A stretch of 64,000 nucleotides of DNA from the NCBI GenBank assembly GCA_964409615.1, contig CAYPDT010000001.1, positions 435,880 through 499,879 of the forward strand. Direction: 5' to 3'. Each line of letters opens with the position of its first letter. Within the stretch, counting starts at the first letter, position 1. Source of the DNA: an uncultured Candidatus Saccharibacteria bacterium. GTDB taxonomy: Bacteria > Patescibacteriota > Saccharimonadia > Saccharimonadales > AWTP1-31. Positions 3,917 through 63,656 of this stretch are shown here, piece by piece. A program made the translations under genes and the position numbers. The notes beneath the pieces are model-generated. The model worked only from the letters and a program-made list of their open reading frames with translations, was not told the origin of the DNA and did not search any database.

Positions 3917-4764
3917 GATAGATGTGTAACCGTGCCAGATACACCACCGCCAGTCAGTCCAGTTCCAGCAATTACGCCGTTAATACCGCCCGCTGCACCC
4001 GTAACAGTTATCGTTCCGGTGTTTACGTCTGTAGATATGCTGACACTGCCCGAACCAACTATCGATGCGCTGCCGTTATTAGAAATGCCATTCAAACTAG
4101 ATAGAACTGTTGACTGTAGAGCACTGAGTGGAATTGTTTGACCAAGCCTAGTAACGCTACCGTCCAGTCGTTCGTTGCTGAGTGTGCCTTCGGTAATATT
4201 GCTGGCGTTGAGGTTAGTCAAAGCCGCACCACTGCCCTGAAAACTAGCAGCAGCTACGCCGCCAGAGATGTTAATGTTGCCCACTTGAGCAGGGCCACCA
4301 AGTACCGGGCTCAAGCTTACGGTATTACCCAAAATACTCGCTAGGTCGTTCAGGGCCTGGGCTGATAAATTAAGCTTACCTTGTACGGTTAAATCGCCGT
4401 TGATGGTGACCGTTTGATCGTTTAATGACTGAACCGGTAACAGGGTATCATCACCAAGGACAGGATTTTGCACGGTGTTGTAGGCGTCGATAGTGCTTTG
4501 GTTTTTGCTAGCATTCTTAACTTTGCCAGCAAGTCGTAATGCTGCGAGGCCAAGTCCGGATACAAAAAACATAACTACCAGCAGCAGAATTGCCTGCTTT
4601 TTCCAAGGTCGTGTTGGTCGACTTTTGATTTGTGTCAAGTTTAACTCAGGTTTTTGAGGTACATTAACAGAAGCAACATCAGCGTTAGCCGGTGCCTGCT
4701 GTAGGCTTTCTAAACCGGTTGTCTTTACTTGCTTATTCTGCAAGTCTAACTGCTTATTATTCAT
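3850..4764 (-). CDS. Truncated paralog of the giant fibre protein N-terminus (304 aa); probably the 5' half of a frameshifted chimera with 1229..3916
   Basis: Residues ~49-280 are identical to giant-protein residues ~42-273 (cytoplasmic tail, TM helix ILLLVVMFFVSGLGLAAL, first repeats). After the homology breakpoint (3924) only 24 unrelated codons precede the stop. It overlaps the start of 1229..3916 in another frame. Confidence 0.5.
   Translation of the reverse strand: MNNKQLDLQNKQVKTTGLESLQQAPANADVASVNVPQKPELNLTQIKSRPTRPWKKQAILLLVVMFFVSGLGLAALRLAGKVKNASKNQSTIDAYNTVQNPVLGDDTLLPVQSLNDQTVTINGDLTVQGKLNLSAQALNDLASILGNTVSLSPVLGGPAQVGNINISGGVAAASFQGSGAALTNLNASNITEGTLSNERLDGSVTRLGQTIPLSALQSTVLSSLNGISNNGSASIVGSGSVSISTDVNTGTITVTGAAGGINGVIAGTGLTGGGVSGTVTHLSWNRLVILMLPLLWMYQLVITA
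3924..4621 (-). repeat. 698-bp direct repeat, copy 1 (identical to 13157-13854, offset 9233)
   Basis: Aligned by eye at both boundaries. Translations are identical in three frames: the 304-aa versus giant ORFs, and + strand shadow ORFs 3922..4104 / 4138..4344 versus 13098..13337 / 13371..13577. Confidence 0.9.
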
Positions 4765-4806: not shown

Positions 4807-4835
4807 ATTTTACGTGTTTTATAGAGGTAGCACAA
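4807..4835 (-). promoter_or_regulatory. Sigma-70-like promoter of the truncated paralog (TTGTGC-17-TAAAAT)
   Basis: -35 at 4830-4835 and -10 at 4807-4812 (minus-strand sense). Conserved in position with the giant-gene promoter. Confidence 0.55.
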
Positions 4836-4905
4836 GCGGAATGACCCCAGAAAAAAATATGCTCGATTTGCAACCATACAACATAGTGACCGACCAACAA
4901 TTTAG

Positions 4906-5604
4906 TTATTTTGCTAGGATAACAACTACTTCAGTGTCTTGGGGCTGTACCTCACCAGTTGGTAGGGTTGTCTGAATCTCAGCACCAATGACTTGTGCTA
5001 TCTTTTGTGTTTCGACAGCACGTTGCCCACCTGTTACATCTACCACAATATTTTTGGTATATGACGTTTTTTTAGCAGAATTTGCTGTATCAATTACACC
5101 GAGGTCTGTACCCAGGGCCTGATTTATCGACTTCTGGGCAGCCTCTAATCCGGCACTGCTAACGCCTGCATTCATCAAGGCTACTTTTACTTTGCCAGAT
5201 GTATTGATACTAAACGGGCCCTGATTGATTATCTTATTTTCAGAATCACGGTAGATAATTATCTTGCGCGCTTTAGAGTACACAACAAGGTAATCGCCGT
5301 TTTTTGCGTTTGTGAAGAATGGATCTTCACCTAGCTTTTCGCGGTCTGTAACGGCAGCAATTTGCGGTTGTTCGTCTTTTGGCAATTCCATAATCTTACC
5401 AAGTCGTGTTAGCAACTTTTTATTAGTTTCGTCAACTGCACTAGTTGGGTTATCTTTCAGGTTCTTGTACTGTGAGTAATAGAAAATACCAAAGCCAACC
5501 GCCCCGCCGACGACGATAAACAAGGCAACTCCGATAATCAGCTTCTTAACACTGATAAATCTTTCGGTTTTAAATACGGGGCGTTCCATGTTGTTCTCCT
5601 GCAT
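4906..5604 (-). CDS. Membrane-anchored LytR_C (LytR cell-envelope-related C-terminal) domain protein (232 aa)
   Basis: N-terminal TM helix (LIIGVALFIVVGGAVGFGIFYY). The C-terminal part, VKVALMNAGVSSAGLEAAQKSINQALG...NIVVDVTGG...VVVILAK, fits the LytR_C pattern. Its ATG overlaps the giant gene stop (TAATG at 5602-5606), which suggests translational coupling. Confidence 0.65.
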   Translation of the reverse strand: MQENNMERPVFKTERFISVKKLIIGVALFIVVGGAVGFGIFYYSQYKNLKDNPTSAVDETNKKLLTRLGKIMELPKDEQPQIAAVTDREKLGEDPFFTNAKNGDYLVVYSKARKIIIYRDSENKIINQGPFSINTSGKVKVALMNAGVSSAGLEAAQKSINQALGTDLGVIDTANSAKKTSYTKNIVVDVTGGQRAVETQKIAQVIGAEIQTTLPTGEVQPQDTEVVVILAK

Positions 5605-11600: not shown

Positions 11601-13976
11601 TCCGTTAACATCCAACGTATAGCCAGCCGTTGCTTGGCCAATGGCAATACGAGTGTTGGTTGTGTCGGCAACAAACAAGTTGCTAGCAGCGGCATTTTGA
11701 ATCTGGAAGGCAGTGGTTGAATCGGTAGCGTTTTTAAAGAGGTTAGCAGCACTAAATGTTTGAGCACCGTTCAGCTTTGCAATATTACTGTCGTTACTCA
11801 AATTAGCACTGCTGATCTGAGTGCCATTAACTTGGAATTGGCCCGTAGTGCTAATGTTGCCGCTGGCGTCAATCTTGGCAATTACGTTGTTGCTGGCATC
11901 TGTAGCTTGGAGCAAGTTAGCAGTCTGGCTTGTTTTTGCCTTGAGTACAACTGTTGGACTGGTGGTAGCTGTCGATTCAATGTTAAAGTTGGCACCCGTC
12001 TGAAGTGAGGTACCGTTTTGGATGTAGAAATTAGCCCCTGCACTTGCTGCACAACCACTGGCATCACAAACCAAGTTACCGCCTACCCGTAAGCCAGTAG
12101 CAGAGTTAATATCTCCGTTAACATCCAATGTATAACCAGCTGTTGCTTGGCCAATGGCAACCCGAGTGTTAGTGCTGTCTACCGTGAATACGTTGGTTGA
12201 ACCCGCGGCATTCTGTACGCGAAATGCAGTGGTTGAATCTGCGCCTGCTTTGTATAATCCACTAGCTCCAATTGTCACTAAGCTGCCGGTATCGCTAATC
12301 GAGCTATCGCCTATCGATTGACTGCCGGTAAATTTAGCCAGTTTGTTAGTGTTTCCACCAAGCGTTGTAACACCACCACCAGCGCTTGCACAGTTACCAA
12401 CAGTAGTACAGAGCGTATAGGTTCCGGGGGAGGTAGCGGCATCGAGATTGTAAATTACATTTCCGGTGGGTGTTCCGGTAAAACCGAGGCTCACCGTACC
12501 CGAACCACTGGTAGCAGTCAGCTTAGTAGTCAGGTCACCCTGCAGCGTCAGCGACTGATTAGTAGCACCGATGACCATCGAAGCTGATGGTTGAATAACG
12601 TTTACAGTCAGCGGTTGAGAAAAGACCACATTGCCAGTGAATGTTTGGTTAGCATTCAATAGGGCAACGTTGGCGCTTAATCGCCCGTCGGCTAAGGTAC
12701 CAGCACTGATATTGCTGGCGTTGAGGTTGGTTAAAGCCGCACCGCTGAGGGCTGGTAGATTACCGCTGTTATCAAGTTTTACTAACTTGTTAGCTAGGTT
12801 GAAAGTATTGCCCTGCAATGTAACGTTTGCCCCCAAACGCGCATCGGCTAAGGTACCAGCACCGATATTGCTGGCGTTGAGGTTGGTTAAGTTTGTTGCG
12901 CTGATTACGGGCAGCTCACCCGCGCCATTAAGCTTGACCAGTTGGTTGGTACCGTTAAAGGTGTTGCCTTGCATGGTGACGTTAGCACTCAAACGACTGT
13001 CACTAACAGTGCCACTACTGATATTGCTGGCGTTGAGGTTGGTTAAGTTTGTTGCGCTGATTACGGGTAGTTCGCCTGCGCCATTAAGCTTGACCAGTTG
13101 GTTGGTACCGTTAAAGGTGTTGCCTTGCATGGTGACAACGCCACTATCTACATCGAGTGTAACCGTGCCAGATACACCACCGCCAGTCAGTCCAGTTCCA
13201 GCAATTACGCCGTTAATACCGCCCGCTGCACCCGTAACAGTTATCGTTCCGGTGTTTACGTCTGTAGATATGCTGACACTGCCCGAACCAACTATCGATG
13301 CGCTGCCGTTATTAGAAATGCCATTCAAACTAGATAGAACTGTTGACTGTAGAGCACTGAGTGGAATTGTTTGACCAAGCCTAGTAACGCTACCGTCCAG
13401 TCGTTCGTTGCTGAGTGTGCCTTCGGTAATATTGCTGGCGTTGAGGTTAGTCAAAGCCGCACCACTGCCCTGAAAACTAGCAGCAGCTACGCCGCCAGAG
13501 ATGTTAATGTTGCCCACTTGAGCAGGGCCACCAAGTACCGGGCTCAAGCTTACGGTATTACCCAAAATACTCGCTAGGTCGTTCAGGGCCTGGGCTGATA
13601 AATTAAGCTTACCTTGTACGGTTAAATCGCCGTTGATGGTGACCGTTTGATCGTTTAATGACTGAACCGGTAACAGGGTATCATCACCAAGGACAGGATT
13701 TTGCACGGTGTTGTAGGCGTCGATAGTGCTTTGGTTTTTGCTAGCATTCTTAACTTTGCCAGCAAGTCGTAATGCTGCGAGGCCAAGTCCGGATACAAAA
13801 AACATAACTACCAGCAGCAGAATTGCCTGCTTTTTCCAAGGTCGTGTTGGTCGATTTTGAGAAATTTTGGGTGACGAAGTAGAAGCAGCACGCTCATTAG
13901 CCGGTGCTTGTTCTAAGCTCTCTAAACCGGTTGATTTGACTTGCTCATTTTGCAAGCCTGCCTGTTTGTTATTCAT
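5604..13976 (-). CDS. Giant membrane-anchored tail-fibre-like surface protein with C-terminal Peptidase_S74 intramolecular-chaperone domain (2,790 aa)
   Basis: Short cytoplasmic tail plus one TM helix. Three 52-aa tandem repeats. Recurring fibre segments (TAFQIQNAAG..LFVADT.NTR.AIGQATAGYTLDVNGDIN). Five CBM4/9-like modules (NPSFD..T.GW ... W.RYTCTFTT ... F.VDA.Q.E). C-terminal SDKRLKENISETRYTLDDLL...TGFLAQDLYAIFPDAV...VDYGRLTPLIVKSVQQL matches the Peptidase_S74 (endosialidase chaperone) consensus. Confidence 0.9.
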   Translation of the reverse strand: MNNKQAGLQNEQVKSTGLESLEQAPANERAASTSSPKISQNRPTRPWKKQAILLLVVMFFVSGLGLAALRLAGKVKNASKNQSTIDAYNTVQNPVLGDDTLLPVQSLNDQTVTINGDLTVQGKLNLSAQALNDLASILGNTVSLSPVLGGPAQVGNINISGGVAAASFQGSGAALTNLNASNITEGTLSNERLDGSVTRLGQTIPLSALQSTVLSSLNGISNNGSASIVGSGSVSISTDVNTGTITVTGAAGGINGVIAGTGLTGGGVSGTVTLDVDSGVVTMQGNTFNGTNQLVKLNGAGELPVISATNLTNLNASNISSGTVSDSRLSANVTMQGNTFNGTNQLVKLNGAGELPVISATNLTNLNASNIGAGTLADARLGANVTLQGNTFNLANKLVKLDNSGNLPALSGAALTNLNASNISAGTLADGRLSANVALLNANQTFTGNVVFSQPLTVNVIQPSASMVIGATNQSLTLQGDLTTKLTATSGSGTVSLGFTGTPTGNVIYNLDAATSPGTYTLCTTVGNCASAGGGVTTLGGNTNKLAKFTGSQSIGDSSISDTGSLVTIGASGLYKAGADSTTAFRVQNAAGSTNVFTVDSTNTRVAIGQATAGYTLDVNGDINSATGLRVGGNLVCDASGCAASAGANFYIQNGTSLQTGANFNIESTATTSPTVVLKAKTSQTANLLQATDASNNVIAKIDASGNISTTGQFQVNGTQISSANLSNDSNIAKLNGAQTFSAANLFKNATDSTTAFQIQNAAASNLFVADTTNTRIAIGQATAGYTLDVNGDINIAAGNSFRINGVAICGPTATCAPSSGSNNYIQNGLTTQTANLNIQSASSSSVVAVVQGATGQTADLLQARDQNNDVVAKITSTGAIYQGSNQVCDTSNNCGYAIGSGSNNYIQNGTSTQTANMNIKSADANSVTATIQGSTAQVADILQVTSGGGSTLLGVSQNTTNIITNPSFDVDTSGWSALGNASIARSTTDQYIGLGSLLVTTTAAANDGARYNYQFAASTSYAVSFYSRVNTTQWGSMQITFTNDGTTQSNCVNNQVVLVGGWTRYTCSFTTSASVSGTRFIGIRQTDATARSFYVDAVQVEPGTTTTAFQQGTIALNGVVNSPVVIRTQSNSNTAFSLQNATGTNIFSLSNTGNGGATVSNGFALSSVGSMSVTAAAASALTVSGGGAFSQYANSNVYNGGSLTVGDTTQNATPLIVNPSAGTNLFGTVSNFDTGTGGVSALGSATLTRSTAEQYAGIGSLRIATTAAANDGVRQIWTNLALNTTYTLSVYAKASGSSFSTFEMGYTDNTTFTSCLTGQTVSSAVWQRYTCTFTTPASVVRNVYYRQTDAISRVFFVDAMQIEIGSTLTPYQEATLSFSGMFTSPAVFRNQSDTTTAFQIQNNAGTSNLFVADTYNNRVAIGKATASYTLDVAGDINSTTALRVGGNQVCDSTGCTVSSSANNVIKNQTTTQTANMNIQSANAANVTAVIQGAGAQTADILQVKDGTAQATPIFSVNQVTPNLIDNSGFDTDTSGWTALGSSTFSQITSPTFVGDGALSFSGTTASDGVKYTYALASNTTYTLSYYGRYTAGWTNAYTGRSENGSTNTDCNNHNWNIPANTWSRMTCTFTTGTVSGSTYLYIRHSGPMYIDGVQLELGSVATEYQPGQIDLNGVISSSLRLRNATDSQRALSIQNAAGADQMSFNTSTGVLCVGPCTSANITGGAGANSYLGAASLQLGPGSTGTLSVGSGGYGNVFAVNSGTSNVVAIQQFTQDANKVGLMVQGFSGVQTTDILQVKGGNTVNNILSVSQNNSNLIVNPSFDTNTTGWTNLNSTSFARTTAETYSGPAGLAVGPTAATGDGVRQSYSLATSTTYTFSFYAKGASAFSTLEAGYVVGSTYTSCATAQAVTTGWNRISCTFTTPGSWGGTPSLYVRQTDATARTFYLDAFQLETGSTPTNYSLGNISLNGTINSPATFRNQSNSTSAFQIQNATGTPQLTFDTTSTGALNIFNSSNRALTISNNKISNNANVLQLEATAGNTVEVVNSGSSDSFPAFKVTGSAAAAVQAQIKGAAAQTADIFQVQGGNTSNNVFTVRQNNANLLTNPSFDVNINGWTAFTGDTISRTTTDQYSGNGSLSNVTTASANAGAFATFALAANTQYSFSVYARASGSNFSTFQMGYTNDGSTNTSCLTGQTVSTTGWTRYTCTFVTSASVSGTRYVYYRQTDATARTFFVDAAQLEISSAATLFNLGSINFNGVINSPTTFQNQSNSVDAFRINNATGIPIFAIDTTTGAVSLGSTSGESGTMNISTGTGTLTINIGTGGIGGKTINIGTGAVANAITIGNTSSSTVLVRAGNYYSVDGGSIYMNACNSCLMQIGLNGWQQYISIGNSSGNTSLATNSGTGGTSLTSTGAVNITTGGSYGGTFSFGGAGLYLQSTGNVVLGGNTSTAQISLAPNLSSGKLELGGSSSNAMTGNIDIGVGNGAQTLNFGTGAAAKTINIGGITTTTNISLKVGATGTNGVTVLTGKTSGTQNLFTFTDGSGDNLGSISIDTTANTTTYNTTSDKRLKENISETRYTLDDLLQISVADYSFITDSTHRTQTGFLAQDLYAIFPDAVKVGGSDPSTDPWAVDYGRLTPLIVKSVQQLNTKVDRLSARVDVLQLSQAAWSGGIVGQTTEFQNLVSFDSFVTFKDKVTFRSDVAFDGRVTFADKDLAGIVTMKAGTKTAHVSFTRPYIEAPIVTVSPKDSAAGYAVKNVQADGFDITVPSNAPADIDFNWIALSVKQSP
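7238..11093 (-). repeat. Five ~290-aa super-repeats (fibre segment plus CBM4/9-like module) within the giant gene
   Basis: The module-start Asn codons of N(P/S/F).FD lie at 11079-81, 10281-83, 9396-98, 8517-19 and 7659-61 (aa 966, 1232, 1527, 1820, 2106). Confidence 0.8.
12663..13130 (-). repeat. Three tandem 156-bp (52-aa) coding repeats in the giant gene
   Basis: Units 12975-13130 and 12819-12974 are near-identical (MQGNTFNGTNQLVKLNGAGELPVISATNLTNLNASNI..GT..D.RL.ANVT). The third unit, 12663-12818, is diverged. Confidence 0.85.
13157..13854 (-). repeat. 698-bp direct repeat, copy 2 (5' coding module of the giant fibre gene)
   Basis: See copy 1. The upstream flanks (13855-~14060 versus 4622-~4850) are homologous but diverged. 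The downstream flanks are unrelated. Confidence 0.9.
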
Positions 13977-31201: not shown

Positions 31202-31981
31202 CTAGTCCTTCAAGTCCTTCCCGGTTAAATCAATAAACACATCCTCCAGGTTAGCCTGTTCGACATGCTGCTTCTTACTAAATCCACGAGCCAGCAACTG
31301 TTTAATAAGATTCTTGGGTGTATCGATAGTTACAATCTTGCCGTTATCCATAATAGCTACTCGGTCACAAAGTAATTCGGCTTCATCCATGTAATGTGTG
31401 GTCAAGATAACAGTCACGCCTTTAGCTTGAATATCACGAATCAAATCCCATAGGTTGCGCCGAGCCTGTGGATCGAGGCCAGTAGTTGGCTCATCCAGGA
31501 AAAAGACTTTGGGCTTATGGACCAAAGAGGCAATAACGCTAAACCGCTGCTTTTGGCCGCCAGAAAGCTTCTCGACATAACTGTTGGCCTTATCGGCCAG
31601 GTTCACTTCCTCCAAAAGCTTCTTAGCATTCACCTTCACGCCGTACGCCGAAGCCATCTGCTCTAGCTGTTCAGTAAGCTTTACACTCGTCATAAAGGCT
31701 GGACTTTGTGGTTGCACGCCAATGATATACTTCACTGCTTGTGGGTCTTCTGCAACGTCGATACCGTCTACCAAGGCTTGCCCACCATCAATCGGCCGCA
31801 ACGTTTCTATCATTTCTAAGGTTGTAGTCTTACCAGCACCATTAGGGCCCAAGATACCAAACACTTCGCCCTTTTTAACACTAAAGGTTATACCTTTAAC
31901 TACCGTTTTATCATCATACTTTTTAGTAAGTCCGGTAACCTCGAGAATTGGTTTACCGCCTTGAATTGTTGCTTTTACCAT
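31202..31981 (-). CDS. ABC transporter ATP-binding protein (259 aa)
   Basis: Walker A GPNGAGKTT, signature LSGGQKQR, Walker B FFLDEPTTGLD, H-loop TTHYMDEA. Confidence 0.92.
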   Translation of the reverse strand: MVKATIQGGKPILEVTGLTKKYDDKTVVKGITFSVKKGEVFGILGPNGAGKTTTLEMIETLRPIDGGQALVDGIDVAEDPQAVKYIIGVQPQSPAFMTSVKLTEQLEQMASAYGVKVNAKKLLEEVNLADKANSYVEKLSGGQKQRFSVIASLVHKPKVFFLDEPTTGLDPQARRNLWDLIRDIQAKGVTVILTTHYMDEAELLCDRVAIMDNGKIVTIDTPKNLIKQLLARGFSKKQHVEQANLEDVFIDLTGKDLKD

Positions 31982-31987
31982 AACATA

Positions 31988-31996
31988 ACTATATCA
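31988..31996 (-). promoter_or_regulatory. Extended -10 (TGaTATAGT), 6 nt upstream of the ABC ATPase ATG 31981
   Basis: Read directly on the minus strand; no SD. Confidence 0.5.
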
Positions 31997-31999
31997 GAT

Positions 32000-32137
32000 G
32001 TCCTGCGTATCCTGCGGCCACCTGACCGCTCACGCGCGGGTGGTCTGGCAACTGAACTGCAGAAAATATCGCATTTCTTTGCCAGACCAAACCGGCTGCG
32101 CTTGCGGAGAGTCAGGTAGCTGCACAATACGCAGAAC
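32000..32137 (-). repeat. Long-hairpin element, copy 1 (candidate structured RNA, minus-strand sense)
   Basis: 27-nt outer arms (32000-32026 / 32111-32137, 22 of 27 paired). The 84-nt core is roughly 80-85% identical by eye to the reverse complement of copy 2. The inner 10-bp helix is GGTCTGGCAA/TTGCCAGACC. Confidence 0.8.
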
Positions 32138-32151
32138 GCAGAAAATAAGTA

Positions 32152-32180
32152 CAAAAAAACGACCCGGGTGGTGCCCGGGC
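32152..32180 (-). terminator. Rho-independent terminator after the 65-aa gene
   Basis: On the minus strand: CCCGGG-CACCA-CCCGGG stem-loop, then TCGTTTTTTT. Confidence 0.75.
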
Positions 32181-32204
32181 CGCTCGTATCCAATATAGTC
32201 AGAA

Positions 32205-32402
32205 CTATTTGGTTCGCTTAACGGTAAGGAAACCGTTGCGTGGGTTTTCGTTAACTTCCATACCTGCTGGTAGGTCAGTTGCTTCTGGGCGTGAGTCTTT
32301 GCTGAAGTAGTAGATAGTCTGCTCTTTGCCGCCTCGTAGAACAACCTTCTTTGAGTTCAGGTGGTAGGTAACTCCCTTTGAGTTTGTGTGCTTGTAAGCC
32401 AT
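32205..32402 (-). CDS. Small basic hypothetical protein (65 aa)
   Basis: TTGACA-18-TATGTT promoter, GAGGGAG SD 7 nt upstream of the ATG, and an intrinsic terminator downstream. This set of expression signals supports a real gene. Confidence 0.7.
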   Translation of the reverse strand: MAYKHTNSKGVTYHLNSKKVVLRGGKEQTIYYFSKDSRPEATDLPAGMEVNENPRNGFLTVKRTK

Positions 32403-40326: not shown

Positions 40327-40356
40327 GGGGTGTCCCACCCTAGCCATAACCACCGG

Positions 40357-40416
40357 TCCAAGGTCCGACCTTGGAAACCGTCAATTTCCAAGCTGTTTCC
40401 AAGGTCGGACCTTGGA
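40357..40416. promoter_or_regulatory. Paired 19-bp palindromes, copy A (TCCAAGGTCCGACCTTGGA - 22 nt - TCCAAGGTCGGACCTTGGA); candidate operator
   Basis: Units at 40357-40375 and 40398-40416. Each is a perfect 9-N-9 palindrome. Located between the divergent tsaC and mscS starts. Confidence 0.6.
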
Positions 40417-40420
40417 AACT

Positions 40421-54844: not shown

Positions 54845-56170
54845 CTATGGTGCTAAGCGGTTGATGTCTCGTGGGAAGAGGGTTGCCTCTTTTACATTAG
54901 CCAGGCCAATGGTTTTCATTACAAAGCGATCCACACCAAAGCCGCAACCACCATGCACAGGCAAGCCATATTTAAATGCTTGCAGGTATGCTTTAAAGCC
55001 TTCGTGTGTAACATCTAAGCCAGCTTTGGTCATCTGTTCTATCATCTTTTCGTAGTTGTTCTCGCGGAGTGGCACAGTTGAAAGTTCAACTCCACGGAAT
55101 ATTAAATCGCCCCACAACACGGTGCCGTCTTCGACATCCAGTTTGTGATAGAACTTACCAGCCGCCAAAGGAAAGCGCACTGCGTATACAAGATCACTGC
55201 CTAGTTGCTTGCGTGCATGTTCAGCAATCCAACGCTCTTCATCTGGTGTTAAGTCTTTCTCGTCGGTAACTTCGGTTTTGGTCGCCTTGGTATACATTTC
55301 GTGAATTTCTGCAATCGTAAAGCGGGGCACCTTGCCGTCTTCAGGTAGCTTTAATTCTGGCGCGTTCAGCGACTTCAGGTCGTCAGCAAATTCTTCGTAC
55401 ACTTTTCGTAGAGCATACTGCGTCATATCAGCAACCATGTCGAGCACTTCGTCATGGTCTTTTACAAAACCCATTTCAAGGTCGAGCATCGTCAGTTCAG
55501 TCAGGTGGCGCGTAGTTGCGCTTGGCTCAGCTCGATAACTATGGCCAATTTCGAAAACACGTTCGAATGCACCGACCATAATTTGCTTAAAGAACTGGGG
55601 GCTCTGGGCCAAGGTAGCTGTCTTGCCAAAATAGTCCAGCTCGAATACTTCGGCACCACCTTCAGTGGCTTCAGCTAGAAGTTTTGGTGTATCAATTTCG
55701 ATGAATTCGTTCTGATGTAAAAAGTCCCGTAAATGGCGCGTTAAACCCGATCGGATTTTAAAGATTTTCTGCTCTTGAATGTTACGTAGGTTAAGTGGAC
55801 GAAGCTCTGGGTCGAATAGCGTATCAAGGTGTTCGCTTTTATGACTTATAGGCTTGTCAATCTCGATTGGTGGCTCTTCGGTAACCGGCACTATAACGGT
55901 AATTGTCGGGTCGTGCAGCTCGGCTCCACCTGGAGCACGCTCATCAGGGAAAACGGTACCGGTAATCTCTACAACTGAGCCGATTTGCATACCACGAAGT
56001 TTTTCGACTTCTTCGCCTTTCTCTACTAATACTTGTGTCAGCCCGCTGCGATCACGGACGTTAATAAAGTTCAATCCACCCAGCAAACGCTTTTTGTGAA
56101 TCCACCCTTGTATAGTTATTTCTTTACTGCCATGACTGGCAACATCTCGTGCTAAAACTCTTTCTTTCAT
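54845..56170 (-). CDS. aspS: Aspartate--tRNA ligase, archaeal/type-2 (441 aa from ATG 56170)
   Basis: Class IIb motifs: FRAEPS-like YRAEPSATTRHLTE, GGCGFGVDRFVM and a C-terminal LFPRDINRLAP. The ORF-track start at 56284 would translate the palindromic element. Confidence 0.85.
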   Translation of the reverse strand: MKERVLARDVASHGSKEITIQGWIHKKRLLGGLNFINVRDRSGLTQVLVEKGEEVEKLRGMQIGSVVEITGTVFPDERAPGGAELHDPTITVIVPVTEEPPIEIDKPISHKSEHLDTLFDPELRPLNLRNIQEQKIFKIRSGLTRHLRDFLHQNEFIEIDTPKLLAEATEGGAEVFELDYFGKTATLAQSPQFFKQIMVGAFERVFEIGHSYRAEPSATTRHLTELTMLDLEMGFVKDHDEVLDMVADMTQYALRKVYEEFADDLKSLNAPELKLPEDGKVPRFTIAEIHEMYTKATKTEVTDEKDLTPDEERWIAEHARKQLGSDLVYAVRFPLAAGKFYHKLDVEDGTVLWGDLIFRGVELSTVPLRENNYEKMIEQMTKAGLDVTHEGFKAYLQAFKYGLPVHGGCGFGVDRFVMKTIGLANVKEATLFPRDINRLAP

Positions 56171-56178
56171 ATGTCTCC

Positions 56179-56187
56179 AGTGTATCA
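56179..56187 (-). promoter_or_regulatory. Extended -10 (TGaTACACT), 8 nt upstream of the aspS ATG 56170
   Basis: Read directly on the minus strand. Confidence 0.5.
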
Positions 56188-56219
56188 CCCGTAAGGTGTT
56201 TGTTAAACGCACCCGCTTG

Positions 56220-56281
56220 TCCAAGGTCCGACCTTGGAAAAAGGACAGTCTATCCAGCTGTTTCCAAGGTCGGACCTTGGA
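56220..56281. promoter_or_regulatory. Paired 19-bp palindromes, copy B (same units, 24-nt spacer); candidate operator upstream of aspS
   Basis: Units at 56220-56238 and 56263-56281. The spacer is homologous to copy A (..GTC.AT..CCA(A)GCTGTT). The flanks CACCCGCTTG / CAAGCAGCGGGTG extend the inverted repeat. Confidence 0.6.
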
Positions 56282-56434
56282 CAAGCAGCGGGTGGGTATA
56301 TTTTAGTTGGCTGAGGGAGGGTCGAGTACGTAGCAAAAGAACGCCGGCTTAGCTACCGACCCGAGAATTTCTATTAGAATTGCGGATTGCACGTACTATT
56401 ATCATATTAAGTAAATTATATCATGTAATCTGAA

Positions 56435-61162: not shown

Positions 61163-62863
61163 ATGCATAGCAGCGTCTTTAACGAAATTAGTGCCATCAT
61201 CGCACTCGGTGCTGGCATTGCACTTATTATGCGCTTTTTGCGCCAACCACTGATTATTGGTCATATCCTTACAGGTATCATCGCTGGCCCAACAGTCTTA
61301 AAGCTCATTCATGCCGACGCCTCGTTTAGCGGCTTATCCGACATGGGTGTAGCGCTACTGCTTTTCATTATTGGCCTCGATTTAAGCCTTAAGGCATTTT
61401 CGAGAGTCGGTAAAACAGTATTTCTAACGACTGCTGCCCAGATCAGTACCATAACAGCAGTAGGCTACGCTTGTTCACGACTTTTGAACTTTAATAAGAC
61501 TGAGTCTTTTGTATTAGGGCTCGGTTTAGCCATGAGCAGCACTATTATTATCGTAAAGCTGCTAAATGATAAAAAAGAAACAACTCGTCTGTATGCTCAA
61601 ATTACCATCGGCGTACTGCTGCTTCAGGATGTAGTAGCTACCATTGCAAAGATTGGGCTGGCTGCAAAGTCACATCCTGGTGACACAGTACAAACTCTGC
61701 TCACCCTTGGCCTCAGAGGCATTGCCCTAGTTGTACTGCTGTATAGCCTTGTTCGGTACATTGTGCCCCACTTAACTGATACACTCGAGCGCAACAAAGA
61801 ACTACTGCTACTGTTTTCACTTGGCTGGGGGTTGGGTTTTGCCCTCTTGTTTGCCAAAGCAGGTTTTTCTATCGAAATTGGCGCTCTGTTTGCGGGTGTC
61901 AGCTTAGCAGGCCTACCATATAGTAGTGAGATGGCTTCACGGCTAAAGCCGCTACGTGACTTCTTCTTAGTTATTTTCTTTATCACGCTTGGGCAGACAA
62001 TGGCACCCGGAAAGCTAACACAAGTTATTCTGCCTGCCCTCGGACTAAGCTTAATTGTTCTTATCCTAAAGCCACTGATAGTGTTAATCAGCATGGGCAG
62101 TATGGGCTACACTAAGCGCGCCAGTTTTAAGGCTGCAGTAGCCATGAGTCAGGTCAGTGAATTCTCGCTCGTATTCCTTGCCGCTGCTGTGGCTAGTGGT
62201 TTTGTGGCCGAACGAGCCTCTACCACACTTACCCTGACGGCGTTAATAACCTTTGCCACTTCGACCTACCTCATTAAGTACGACAATGTAATCTTTACTA
62301 AGCTCGAACGACATCTCCGCTTATTCGAGCGACACGTTACTAAACTCGAACAACACGGCGGTACCATGACATACCCTATTGTTCTCTTCGGCTACCGCAA
62401 AGGTGGTCATGAATTCTTAAAAACGTTTAAGAAAATGGAGAAGAAGTTTGTGGTGGTCGACTACGACCCCGAGAATATAGAGACCCTCGAACGCCAACAG
62501 GTACCTTATCTGTACGGCGACGCCACCGACCCCGAACTACTCGATGAGCTTAACCTTACCAAGGCACGGCTCGTTATTTCTACTATTGGCGACCGCGAAA
62601 CCAACCATTTTTTGGCGCACTGGCTAGCTACCCATAATCCACGAGCTGTCTTTGTTTGCTCAGCTGACCGTGCAGAACATGCTTCTGACTTATATTCCGA
62701 GGGAGCCTCGTACGTAATGATGCCGCACTATATTGGAAGTGAAAAAATCAGTACCTTTATCCGCCGCAATGGCTTTAATAAGAGCGAGTTCAAAGCCTTC
62801 CGCGAAAAACACTTATCGTACTTACAGTCACATTTCGAAGAACAAATCGAAGAAGCAAGTTAA
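61163..62863 (+). CDS. Cation:proton antiporter (CPA2/Kef-type) with C-terminal RCK/TrkA-N domain (566 aa)
   Basis: About 12 TM helices (GHILTGIIAGP start typical of the Na_H_Exchanger family). The C-terminal part, VLFGYRKGGHEF...VVVDYDPE...YGDATDPELL, is RCK-like. Confidence 0.82.
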   Translation: MHSSVFNEISAIIALGAGIALIMRFLRQPLIIGHILTGIIAGPTVLKLIHADASFSGLSDMGVALLLFIIGLDLSLKAFSRVGKTVFLTTAAQISTITAVGYACSRLLNFNKTESFVLGLGLAMSSTIIIVKLLNDKKETTRLYAQITIGVLLLQDVVATIAKIGLAAKSHPGDTVQTLLTLGLRGIALVVLLYSLVRYIVPHLTDTLERNKELLLLFSLGWGLGFALLFAKAGFSIEIGALFAGVSLAGLPYSSEMASRLKPLRDFFLVIFFITLGQTMAPGKLTQVILPALGLSLIVLILKPLIVLISMGSMGYTKRASFKAAVAMSQVSEFSLVFLAAAVASGFVAERASTTLTLTALITFATSTYLIKYDNVIFTKLERHLRLFERHVTKLEQHGGTMTYPIVLFGYRKGGHEFLKTFKKMEKKFVVVDYDPENIETLERQQVPYLYGDATDPELLDELNLTKARLVISTIGDRETNHFLAHWLATHNPRAVFVCSADRAEHASDLYSEGASYVMMPHYIGSEKISTFIRRNGFNKSEFKAFREKHLSYLQSHFEEQIEEAS

Positions 62864-62868
62864 GCAAT

Positions 62869-63016
62869 AGCCCACTCACAGAGCCCACTGCCACTAGACT
62901 CTCCGTCAGCGCAGCCGGGTTGGTATGACAAGGAAATGCGATAATGTTATTGCAGTTCAGTTGTCATGCCATCCGCGCGTGAGCGGTCTAGTGGCAGTGG
63001 GCTCTGTGAGTGGGCT
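62869..63016 (+). repeat. Long-hairpin element, copy 2 (candidate structured RNA / terminator, plus-strand sense)
   Basis: Perfect 31-bp outer arms (62869-62899 / 62986-63016), an 86-nt conserved core, and an inner helix GGTATGACAA/TTGTCATGCC. A T-run (63021-63026) begins 4 nt after the 3' arm. Confidence 0.8.
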
Positions 63017-63656
63017 AAGCTTTTTTGTTGGCTGATTCGATATCGTGGTACAGCCATTGTTTACGGGCATAAGTTTCGACACTCTTAAGTAGCCCTTGTG
63101 GGTGCTCGCCGGCAATCATACTGGAACGAATTTTTGTTGAGGAAATAAGTGGCTGTGTATTGGTTGTGTGCCACAGTGCTAATGGCTGAACCGGCAGATG
63201 CTGAGCCTGTTGAACTATAACCTCTGAAGAGACGCCTTCCCGCTCTGCCACAATAATCTCAACTTGTTGCAGCATATACTCTACGTGGGGCCATTGCTCT
63301 GGAAAGTGGGTAAGGTGGTCGAATAAATCAGCTCCCAGCAAAACTGCAAGAGTATCCTTGGGGAAGCGTTTTTGTAAGTGCCCCATGGTGGTCTTTGGCA
63401 GAAAGTATTTACCAGGCAAATCAAGCACCCCTAACCGTGGATGAGCTCGCACAGCAAGCTCCAACATAGCTATACGGTGAGCAATATGGCTAACCTGCGG
63501 CTTGCGGCGGGGCTTGACCTCTGGTGCGAAATAAACCATGTCTAGATGGGCAACCTTTAGGGCGTGTAAGGCAAAAGTTACATGCCCTTTGTGTACCGGA
63601 TCAAAACTGCCCGAGAATATACCAATTCGCCGCGGGGTTTTTGAGGTTTTAGACAT
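63015..63656 (-). CDS. nadD: Nicotinate/nicotinamide-nucleotide adenylyltransferase (213 aa)
   Basis: IGIFSGSFDPVHKGHV (GxFxPxHxGH) and ISSTKIR (the ISST.IR motif). Confidence 0.85.
   Translation of the reverse strand: MSKTSKTPRRIGIFSGSFDPVHKGHVTFALHALKVAHLDMVYFAPEVKPRRKPQVSHIAHRIAMLELAVRAHPRLGVLDLPGKYFLPKTTMGHLQKRFPKDTLAVLLGADLFDHLTHFPEQWPHVEYMLQQVEIIVAEREGVSSEVIVQQAQHLPVQPLALWHTTNTQPLISSTKIRSSMIAGEHPQGLLKSVETYARKQWLYHDIESANKKA

Follow-up and report, generated by a model that had tools for sequence, protein, structure and literature searches.

Long hairpin at the kef-nadD boundary

In the window, by which we mean the whole 64,000-nucleotide stretch of Saccharibacteria DNA that was analysed, a Kef-type cation/proton antiporter gene (kef) and nadD converge on a spacer that is occupied, from 4 nt past the kef stop codon (TAA, 62861-62863) through the nadD stop codon, by a single hairpin of 150 nt (Table 1). 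Its two arms form a 32-nt inverted repeat that is 100% complementary and encloses an 86-nt interior. The right arm takes in all 3 nt of the nadD stop codon (TAG, read as CTA, 63015-63017), and TTTTTT begins 3 nt past the arm. An earlier note on this DNA had rightly described a perfect stem placed between two convergent stop codons and followed by a U-run, but its measurements need adjusting: the arms, given as 31 bp, are one base pair longer; the left arm starts 4 nt rather than 6 nt past the kef stop; the right arm covers 3 nt rather than 2 nt of the nadD stop; and the U-run lies 3 nt rather than 4 nt past the arm. In the minimum free energy fold, two added G-C pairs (62864/63020 and 62865/63019) extend the stem right up to the U-run, and the sense RNA forms a single rod of -112.9 kcal/mol (z = -14.2 against shuffled sequences). 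No other match to the arm at three or fewer mismatches was found in the window, or in 100 shuffles. The 5' arm has an internal repeat (GCCCACT twice and GCCACT once), and the apical domain consists of a stem (GGUAUGACAA/UUGUCAUGCC), a GAA/UUC helix with an A.G mismatch, and a UGCGAUA...UAUUGCA hairpin.

Table 1. Coordinates in the window of the two element copies and of the genes around the kef-nadD spacer
Feature	Position	Strand	Remarks
Copy 1	32000..32137	-	5' arm 32111-32137, core 32027-32110, 3' arm 32000-32026
Kef-type cation/proton antiporter gene	61163..62863	+	PF00999 + PF02254; its transcript would enter copy 2 in sense
Copy 2, 5' arm	62868..62899	+	TAGCCCACTCACAGAGCCCACTGCCACTAGAC; perfect 32-nt inverted repeat with 62986-63017
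Copy 2, 4-nt 5' bulge UCUC	62900..62903	+	beside AC/GU closing pair; from alignment and folds
Copy 2, conserved 5' basal block	62904..62918	+	CGUCA-GCGC-A-GC-C-GG; bulged A 62913, bulged C 62916
Copy 2, apical domain, long form	62919..62972	+	compensatory changes between copies and across the family
Copy 2, conserved 3' basal block	62973..62986	+	CC-GC-GCGU-GA-GCGG; U62980 pairs with G62909 (invariant G.U)
Copy 2, 3' arm	62986..63017	+	last 3 nt, CTA, are the nadD stop codon
T6 run directly past the extended stem	63021..63026	+	Lys-Lys of nadD on the minus strand
nadD, nicotinate-nucleotide adenylyltransferase	63015..63656	-	PF01467; convergent with kef

A second copy of the element (copy 1; the hairpin at kef-nadD is copy 2) lies 31 kb away, and both stand among housekeeping genes. 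The cores of the two copies are ~87% identical, which bears out the proposal in the earlier note that the 86-nt interior is conserved between them. The arms differ in sequence yet still pair: those of copy 1 are 27 nt long and 81% complementary, and their 26 aligned positions comprise 21 Watson-Crick pairs, three G.U pairs, one A.C and one other mismatch. Compensatory changes also separate the inner stems of the two copies (GGUAUGACAA/UUGUCAUGCC against GGUCUGGCAA/UUGCCAGACC). Copy 1 sits between an intrinsic terminator (32157-32185) and the ATG (31981) of an ABC-2 ATPase gene, which places it in a 5' leader or promoter region and not at a 3' end; the statement that it is not in a terminator position therefore holds.

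In the window, a covariance model of the family detects these two copies and no others, with scores of 86.8 and 83.7 bits; the next match scores 14.9 bits. Weak model matches at 40.4 kb and 56.2 kb, considered as a third copy, belong to a different palindromic repeat. A small ORF in the core was also rejected, the ATG of copy 2 being absent from copy 1. A search of the window for tRNA and tmRNA genes returned none, and Pfam assigned 20 of its proteins to housekeeping functions, with no transposase, reverse transcriptase or Nop-domain protein among them. Homologues of nadD and kef assign the window to Candidatus Saccharibacteria.

A dispersed hairpin family in Saccharibacteria

Representative genomes, metagenomes and viral contigs were scanned with the pattern GCGCAGCCGG N35-65 CGCGCGTGAGCGG, and the family was further searched with a covariance model (R1) that scores family loci at 58-94 bits. 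Together these searches yielded ~25 further distinct copies, all of them in Saccharibacteria/Patescibacteria genomes and metagenomes. The representative genomes contributed 11 Saccharibacteria/Patescibacteria loci, beside chance matches in G+C-rich genomes, and the metagenomes ~16 more distinct loci; the viral contigs held no match to the core pattern. By the strict pattern there are one to five copies per genome, with five loci in the metagenome-assembled genome JARIHB01 and two in CAYUUT01. In one sequence, L108, two family members stand head to head, 66 nt apart (4635-4744, minus strand; 4811-4921, plus strand), and the minus-strand copy was recovered by the model alone. Its variant core (GCGGAGCCGG with CCGAA) evades the search pattern. 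The basal blocks thus show some variation, and the pattern scans underestimate the size of the family.

The copies share a common anatomy. Outer arms of ~13-35 bp, copy-specific and mostly perfect, lead to an AC/GU closing pair; the 4-nt 5' bulge next to it reads UAAA, UCAA, UUAA or UGAA in most members. Above this lies a basal core (CGGAA-GCGC-A-GC-C-GG ... CC-GC-GCGU-GA-GCGG) with an invariant G.U pair, a bulged A and a bulged C, and a purine-rich internal loop. The sequence GCGCAGCCGG is present in 27 of the 28 copies, the model-only copy carrying GCGGAGCCGG instead, and the 3' basal block is identical in 28/28; the invariance of the basal blocks is partly, and that of the 3' block largely, preset by the search pattern. 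At the G.U position, however, the pattern permitted either pyrimidine and U alone was found in the 28 copies. The apical stem varies with compensation and takes two forms, a long one (GGARAUGC...GCAGYUCAG, as in both window copies) and a short one (GAGACYNNRGGCUC), and the A.G mismatch is kept in both. In a model-guided alignment of 28 sequences, 87% of cells are paired, compared with 28-52% after sliding of the partners. Covariation scores 0.489, a value attained by none of 500 shuffles (0.168), and double changes occur in 24 of 37 pairs, although the aligned sequences are related and such shuffle statistics overstate significance.

The family is uncatalogued. None of the 4227 covariance models of Rfam 15 matched anywhere in the window at gathering thresholds, permissive Rfam scans of the two copies gave chance-level matches alone (E 0.55-7.7, far below gathering scores), and literature searches, including searches with the conserved sequence strings, found no description of the element. 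It is a dispersed, low-copy hairpin family specific to Saccharibacteria. Bacterial interspersed hairpin repeats and structured RNA motifs are known as a general kind; a conserved asymmetric centre between free, perfect arms is unusual among them. The genomes of Saccharibacteria and other CPR bacteria are tiny and densely packed, and very few non-coding elements have been described in them. Here, ~28 representatives define a structured element that covaries strongly, folds in a strand-specific way and has an asymmetric core with almost no variation.

Filled and empty sites

The earlier note had asked whether orthologous kef-nadD spacers carry the element. Near-identical strains do and other relatives do not: copy 2 is present at kef-nadD solely in strains of 98-99% identity (L007, L146 and L147), and in relatives at 59-87% identity the spacer measures 2-28 nt and has no hairpin. 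Similarly, copy 1 is found in four near-identical assemblies, and the orthologous site lacks it in L155 and L157, at 92% and 90% identity. Both window copies are missing from the orthologous sites of relatives with 82-92% protein identity. Overall, L007, L146, L147 and L151-L154 carry an element and L001-L006, L149, L150, L155 and L157 have empty orthologous sites, and a filter-free model search agrees with every one of these calls. This distribution indicates that both window copies are lineage-specific insertions and that entry into the kef-nadD spacer was recent.

The empty sites are not palindromic, and the insertions show no sign of target-site duplication: across the family, the longest word shared by the two flanks has a mean length of 3.69, against 3.48 in mismatched controls. 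Candidate duplications at copy 2 (TAAGC) and copy 1 (TCTG) are at chance level. The earlier note had named two outcomes that would refute it: an untranscribed element absent from all relatives, or a many-copy mobile palindrome with target-site duplications. An insertion-polymorphic palindromic element in many copies, absent from all but near-identical relatives, is indeed what we find; target-site duplications are not, and neither are the arms conserved terminal repeats. The arms have no significant similarity to the relatives' empty-site sequence, in a comparison of low power in which the relatives' empty spacers do not align with one another. We also considered that the right arm might derive from nadD coding sequence, and rejected this: the C-terminus NKKA is ancestral (P0007 has ANKKTLR), and so is the stop, which the element-free relative L149 has at the same codon. 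The arm therefore ends exactly at the original stop codon.

Several further observations concern the insertion sites. At copy 1, insertion coincides with the loss of a segment that the relatives retain (L155 1090-1200 and L157 1096-1200, compared with window 31982-32156). This segment, which runs from the terminator to the ABC-2 transporter gene, holds a palindrome, GTTAACACGTTAAG, followed by TATATT, and is probably the promoter and operator of the ABC operon; if so, that promoter has been rearranged in this lineage. The short-read metagenome contigs L007 and L147 end inside the element, so the inverted repeat fragments assemblies at these loci. In sample SRR12022136, the copy 1 region (L153) is 100% identical to window 31975-32215, and the kef region recovered from the same sample, judged from L146/L147 against window 61163-63017, fits a lineage with 18% divergence from the window at 4-fold sites, which indicates either mosaic recombination between strains or co-existing strains. 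The element breaks short-read assemblies and alters neighbouring gene ends and a promoter region.

Selection on the core and the arms

Comparison with L146, a 99% relative, separates the behaviour of the two parts of the hairpin. At 4-fold degenerate sites, divergence of the window from L146 amounts to 18% in kef and 9% in nadD. The arms have changed at roughly the neutral rate, with 8 of 64 positions different, and none of the 86 core positions has changed, those of the apical domain included. Such invariance points to strong constraint on the core sequence. It also strengthens the earlier argument that the core has a role beyond termination, since the core is the conserved part of a ~28-copy family and is unchanged despite ~16% neutral divergence.

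The arm differences in L146 comprise two compensated C-G to U-A pairs, two new G.U pairs, one C.C mismatch and one terminal pair; four of the altered positions lie in the 5' arm of copy 2, two of them compensated on the other arm. Thus, arm pairing has been maintained. This could be due to selection or to template-switch correction of quasipalindromes, which is a known process. Both compensated pairs strike the same position of the repeated GCCCACU motif: the two GCCCACU units in 62868-62899 both read GCCUACU in L146 (2444-2475), and the partner positions have changed too, making four parallel changes. This suggests conversion between the repeat units or selection on the motif.

Elsewhere in the family, elements have been kept at the orthologous sites L026/L140 and L066/L092 despite divergence of the flanks. 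These orthologues keep recognisable arms, although arms and apical stems have diverged, and the basal core is intact. The paralogues L026 and L056 present the opposite picture, with identical 77-nt cores, unrelated arms and an identity that ends exactly at the closing pair. The contrast points to exchange of cores between copies or to arms that were made afresh. Apart from orthologous or old paralogous pairs, the copies share no arm motifs above the null expectation, and a resemblance between the arms of a window copy and L026 (TAGCCC(C)AC..CACAG) is not significant. Against 300 kb of Saccharibacteria DNA the arms gave chance 12-mers alone. The element still inserts at new sites, and it is also retained at some sites across diverged genomes.

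Strand asymmetry of the fold

The hairpin is not equivalent on its two strands. Arm mismatches across the family comprise 19 G.T against 5 A.C (p = 0.0066, with non-Watson-Crick pairs all scored alike), and the new substitutions in L146 and L154 yield G.U pairs, never A.C. Of 30 copies, 27 fold better as the sense strand (mean difference -9.1 kcal/mol), and for the core alone the count is 29 of 30. Copy 1 (-85.3 vs -75.8 kcal/mol) and copy 2 (-112.9 vs -99.1 kcal/mol for sense and antisense) favour the same sense relative to the core, and at kef-nadD this is the plus strand, as the earlier note had supposed. Together, the excess of G.T, the bias in folding, the new G.U pairs and the invariant G.U pair of the core argue that the element has been selected as a single strand of one sense. 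The acting molecule is most probably the sense single strand as RNA, which is the simplest reading, with single-stranded DNA as the alternative; G.T wobble stabilises DNA hairpins too. With 86 nt separating the arms, duplex DNA is unlikely to form a stable cruciform.

Genomic context and termination

Copies of the element abut stop codons, usually at a distance of 0-30 nt. Many stand between convergent genes or immediately past the end of one gene, and almost none between divergent genes. At L026/L140, for example, the hairpin again takes up the space separating two convergent stop codons. In ~17 of 24 copies, the element has the same orientation as the gene on its 5' side. The other ~7/24 are antisense to that gene, and four copies lie antisense within tandem gene pairs. 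These antisense copies would need a promoter of their own, and no conserved promoter is visible for them. No neighbouring gene family recurs among the loci, neighbours being shared solely at orthologous loci, and the flanking genes differ between loci, in contrast to what is expected of a riboswitch or cis-regulatory leader.

Among the copies, only copy 2 has the geometry of an intrinsic terminator, with a stem (62864-63020) that runs into U6 behind the kef stop codon; a simple terminator scanner flagged just a 5-bp sub-hairpin of it. Its U-run is made up of the Lys-Lys codons of nadD on the opposite strand, and none was found behind copy 1 or other members of the family. Thus canonical intrinsic termination cannot be the function of the family. 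The suggestion that the hairpin could act as an oversized intrinsic terminator is therefore tenable at kef, where the stem is flush with U6, and does not extend to the family, with no U-run elsewhere and ~7/24 copies antisense.

A working model and its alternatives

The reading that we prefer, with a probability of about 0.5, is that the element is an insertion-polymorphic, low-copy family of rod-shaped hairpins that works as a sense single strand, most probably as RNA, and that serves as a local terminator or insulator at kef-nadD. The hairpin has three parts: a near-invariant, asymmetric basal core, an apical stem-loop held at the level of structure, and outer arms of which pairing alone is kept. 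The asymmetric features of the core (the G.U pair, the bulged A and C, the purine-rich loop and the 4-nt 5' bulge) have the look of a platform for recognition by a protein. After recent entry of the whole hairpin into the kef-nadD spacer, sense RNA would be made by read-through from the upstream gene, kef transcripts entering copy 2 in sense. We infer that such RNA would fold into a 150-nt rod whose 31-bp helix, flush with U6, would end or stall transcription; the rod may also protect the 3' end and separate the convergent kef and nadD transcripts.

RNase III could then cut the long perfect duplex and release the conserved core hairpin. The sense transcript would contain a perfect helix of 31-32 bp, against the at least ~20 bp of uninterrupted dsRNA taken as the mark of a substrate, and a 31-bp perfect helix is long enough for RNase III. 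This arrangement resembles the processing stems of rRNA and tRNA, in which long complementary flanks surround a conserved structured RNA and only the pairing of the flanks is kept. Those stems, however, flank essential operon RNAs, whereas the element is an 86-nt hairpin present in several mobile copies.

The strongest alternative, to which we give clearly less weight, is a selfish element that moves as single-stranded DNA, comparable to REPIN/RAYT or IS200/IS605 derivatives. The core would then be a hairpin read by an unlinked HUH or tyrosine-type enzyme, and effects at the RNA level, such as the terminator and the RNase III site, would be incidental. Much of the evidence is compatible with this. 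Insertion polymorphism is seen at both window loci; target-site duplications are lacking, as with IS200/IS605 and IS110 elements; copies occur in both orientations relative to neighbouring genes, and in L108 as a head-to-head pair; the strand-specific asymmetry and the extrahelical bases recall other single-stranded DNA recombination substrates; and identity stops sharply at the foot of the core in L026 and L056, where identical cores meet unrelated arms. Set against it, however, no transposase, reverse transcriptase or integrase adjoins any copy, and no family of flanking genes recurs among the loci examined. An unchanged 86-nt core at an orthologous site, against ~16% neutral divergence, and retention across diverged genomes would be surprising in inert copies. 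Copy number is also low, at one to five per genome by the strict pattern.

Like REP/BIME/REPIN, Correia, ERIC and RUP repeats, the element is a short, multi-copy, insertion-polymorphic intergenic hairpin at gene 3' ends and in convergent spacers, and transcripts of REP-type repeats likewise form long hairpins that can end or stabilise mRNAs or be cut by RNase III. The layout is reversed, though. In REP-type repeats, and in MITEs, an enzyme recognises conserved arms that flank a variable centre; here conservation falls on an asymmetric centre, and the arms are unshared and vary freely while staying perfectly paired. Target-site duplication is again missing here, and copy number is low. No RAYT (Y1 HUH) gene was found near any copy, in the 64 kb or at the short loci. 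Integron attC sites are similar in that they are recombination-type hairpins of which structure and extrahelical bases are conserved and one folded strand is functional. In attC, however, it is the base (the R'' and R' boxes) that is conserved and the centre that varies, and the sites lie in cassette arrays by intI, whereas the conserved part of the present element is internal. When R'' (RYYYAAC) and R' (GTTRRRY) boxes were sought as a pair at the foot of the hairpin, neither a GTTRRRY box nor an array was found; an ACUYAAC-like sequence does occur at the 5' bulge of some copies, where it is unpaired, and the window copies read ACUCUCC.

More daringly, and with a probability that we would put at a small fraction, the core may be a self-propagating hairpin module that shifts between arms or creates its own. 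The paired 3' end of the core could prime copying of the sequence lying 5' to it (snap-back synthesis), or cores could be swapped between resident hairpins. Such a module would account for identical cores in unrelated perfect arms, for the boundary at the AC/GU pair and for the lack of target duplications. If real, it would be a mechanism of mobility not described for bacterial repeats. The layout of the element raises two questions: which protein reads the core, and how new arms are made or stay perfect.

Three further explanations each fail their own defining tests. A classical MITE (Correia, ERIC or RUP type), formed by deletion from an insertion sequence and mobilised through transposase binding to its terminal inverted repeats, would explain a short, multi-copy, insertion-polymorphic intergenic palindrome near gene ends; indeed, several copies per genome and the contrast of filled and empty orthologous sites are what any mobile repeat would give. 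We nevertheless regard it as very improbable, because the terminal arms are unrelated between copies even where cores are identical, shared flank words do not rise above background, and neither solitary half-cores nor longer parent elements occur in the DNA examined, save for copies truncated by contig ends.

An oversized or bidirectional intrinsic terminator that evolved in place for kef and nadD is slightly less probable still. Copy 2 resembles Rho-independent terminators in having a stem followed by U6 just downstream of a stop codon, and the convergence of the two genes suits this explanation. However, the hairpin is ~ten times the usual size and has a conserved structured interior, the relatives' short spacer does without one, the same core stands at unrelated loci and in other genomes, and the U-run is nadD coding sequence and no trait of the family. 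In-place evolution is thus contradicted as a full explanation, and termination remains a local consequence of the insertion.

Equally improbable is a guide-bearing hairpin, in which the arms would be acquired specificity sequences, in the manner of spacers or TIGR stems, and the core a handle for a protein. A constant core with unique arms of 25-32 nt would suit it, as would the 'variable but consistently palindromic' stems of TIGR-Tas systems in CPR bacteria (PMC12045711). TIGR stem-loop units lie in tandem arrays by a tas gene and have box C/D motifs with unpaired spacers of 8-12 nt (PMC12045711). The likeness lies in the occurrence in CPR bacteria and in variable but palindromic stems around a functional interior (PMC12045711), whereas the present elements are solitary, dispersed and built around an 86-nt paired rod. 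When the motifs of box C (RUGAUGA) and box D (CUGA) were sought (PMC12045711), the core of copy 2 had neither UGAUGA nor CUGA and was fully paired, with kef, nadD and an ABC transporter as neighbours; unpaired spacers, a tandem array and an adjacent Nop-domain gene are likewise lacking. Moreover, inheritance of the arms is vertical, and they drift with compensation at a roughly neutral rate. The element had no match in phage or plasmid collections and its arms no exact match in viral contigs, in searches of low sensitivity. That the arms are programmable double-strand guides is more speculative still.

Other repeats in the window

The weak model matches mentioned above correspond to a second, unrelated family of palindromic repeats (GTCCAAGGTCCGACCTTGGAAAC and its complement), which forms double palindromes at gene boundaries at 40356-40418 and 56215-56286. 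One site lies beside an MscS-like gene at 40412 and the other overlaps the start of a class II aminoacyl-tRNA synthetase gene (54845-56284, minus strand); the covariance model scores both at chance level. The window also holds an exact 300-nt duplicate (3924-4223 and 13157-13456, 9.2 kb apart). Many internal direct repeats occur between 5604 and 19184, in two giant minus-strand ORFs of 2790 and 1695 amino acids that probably encode repetitive surface proteins.
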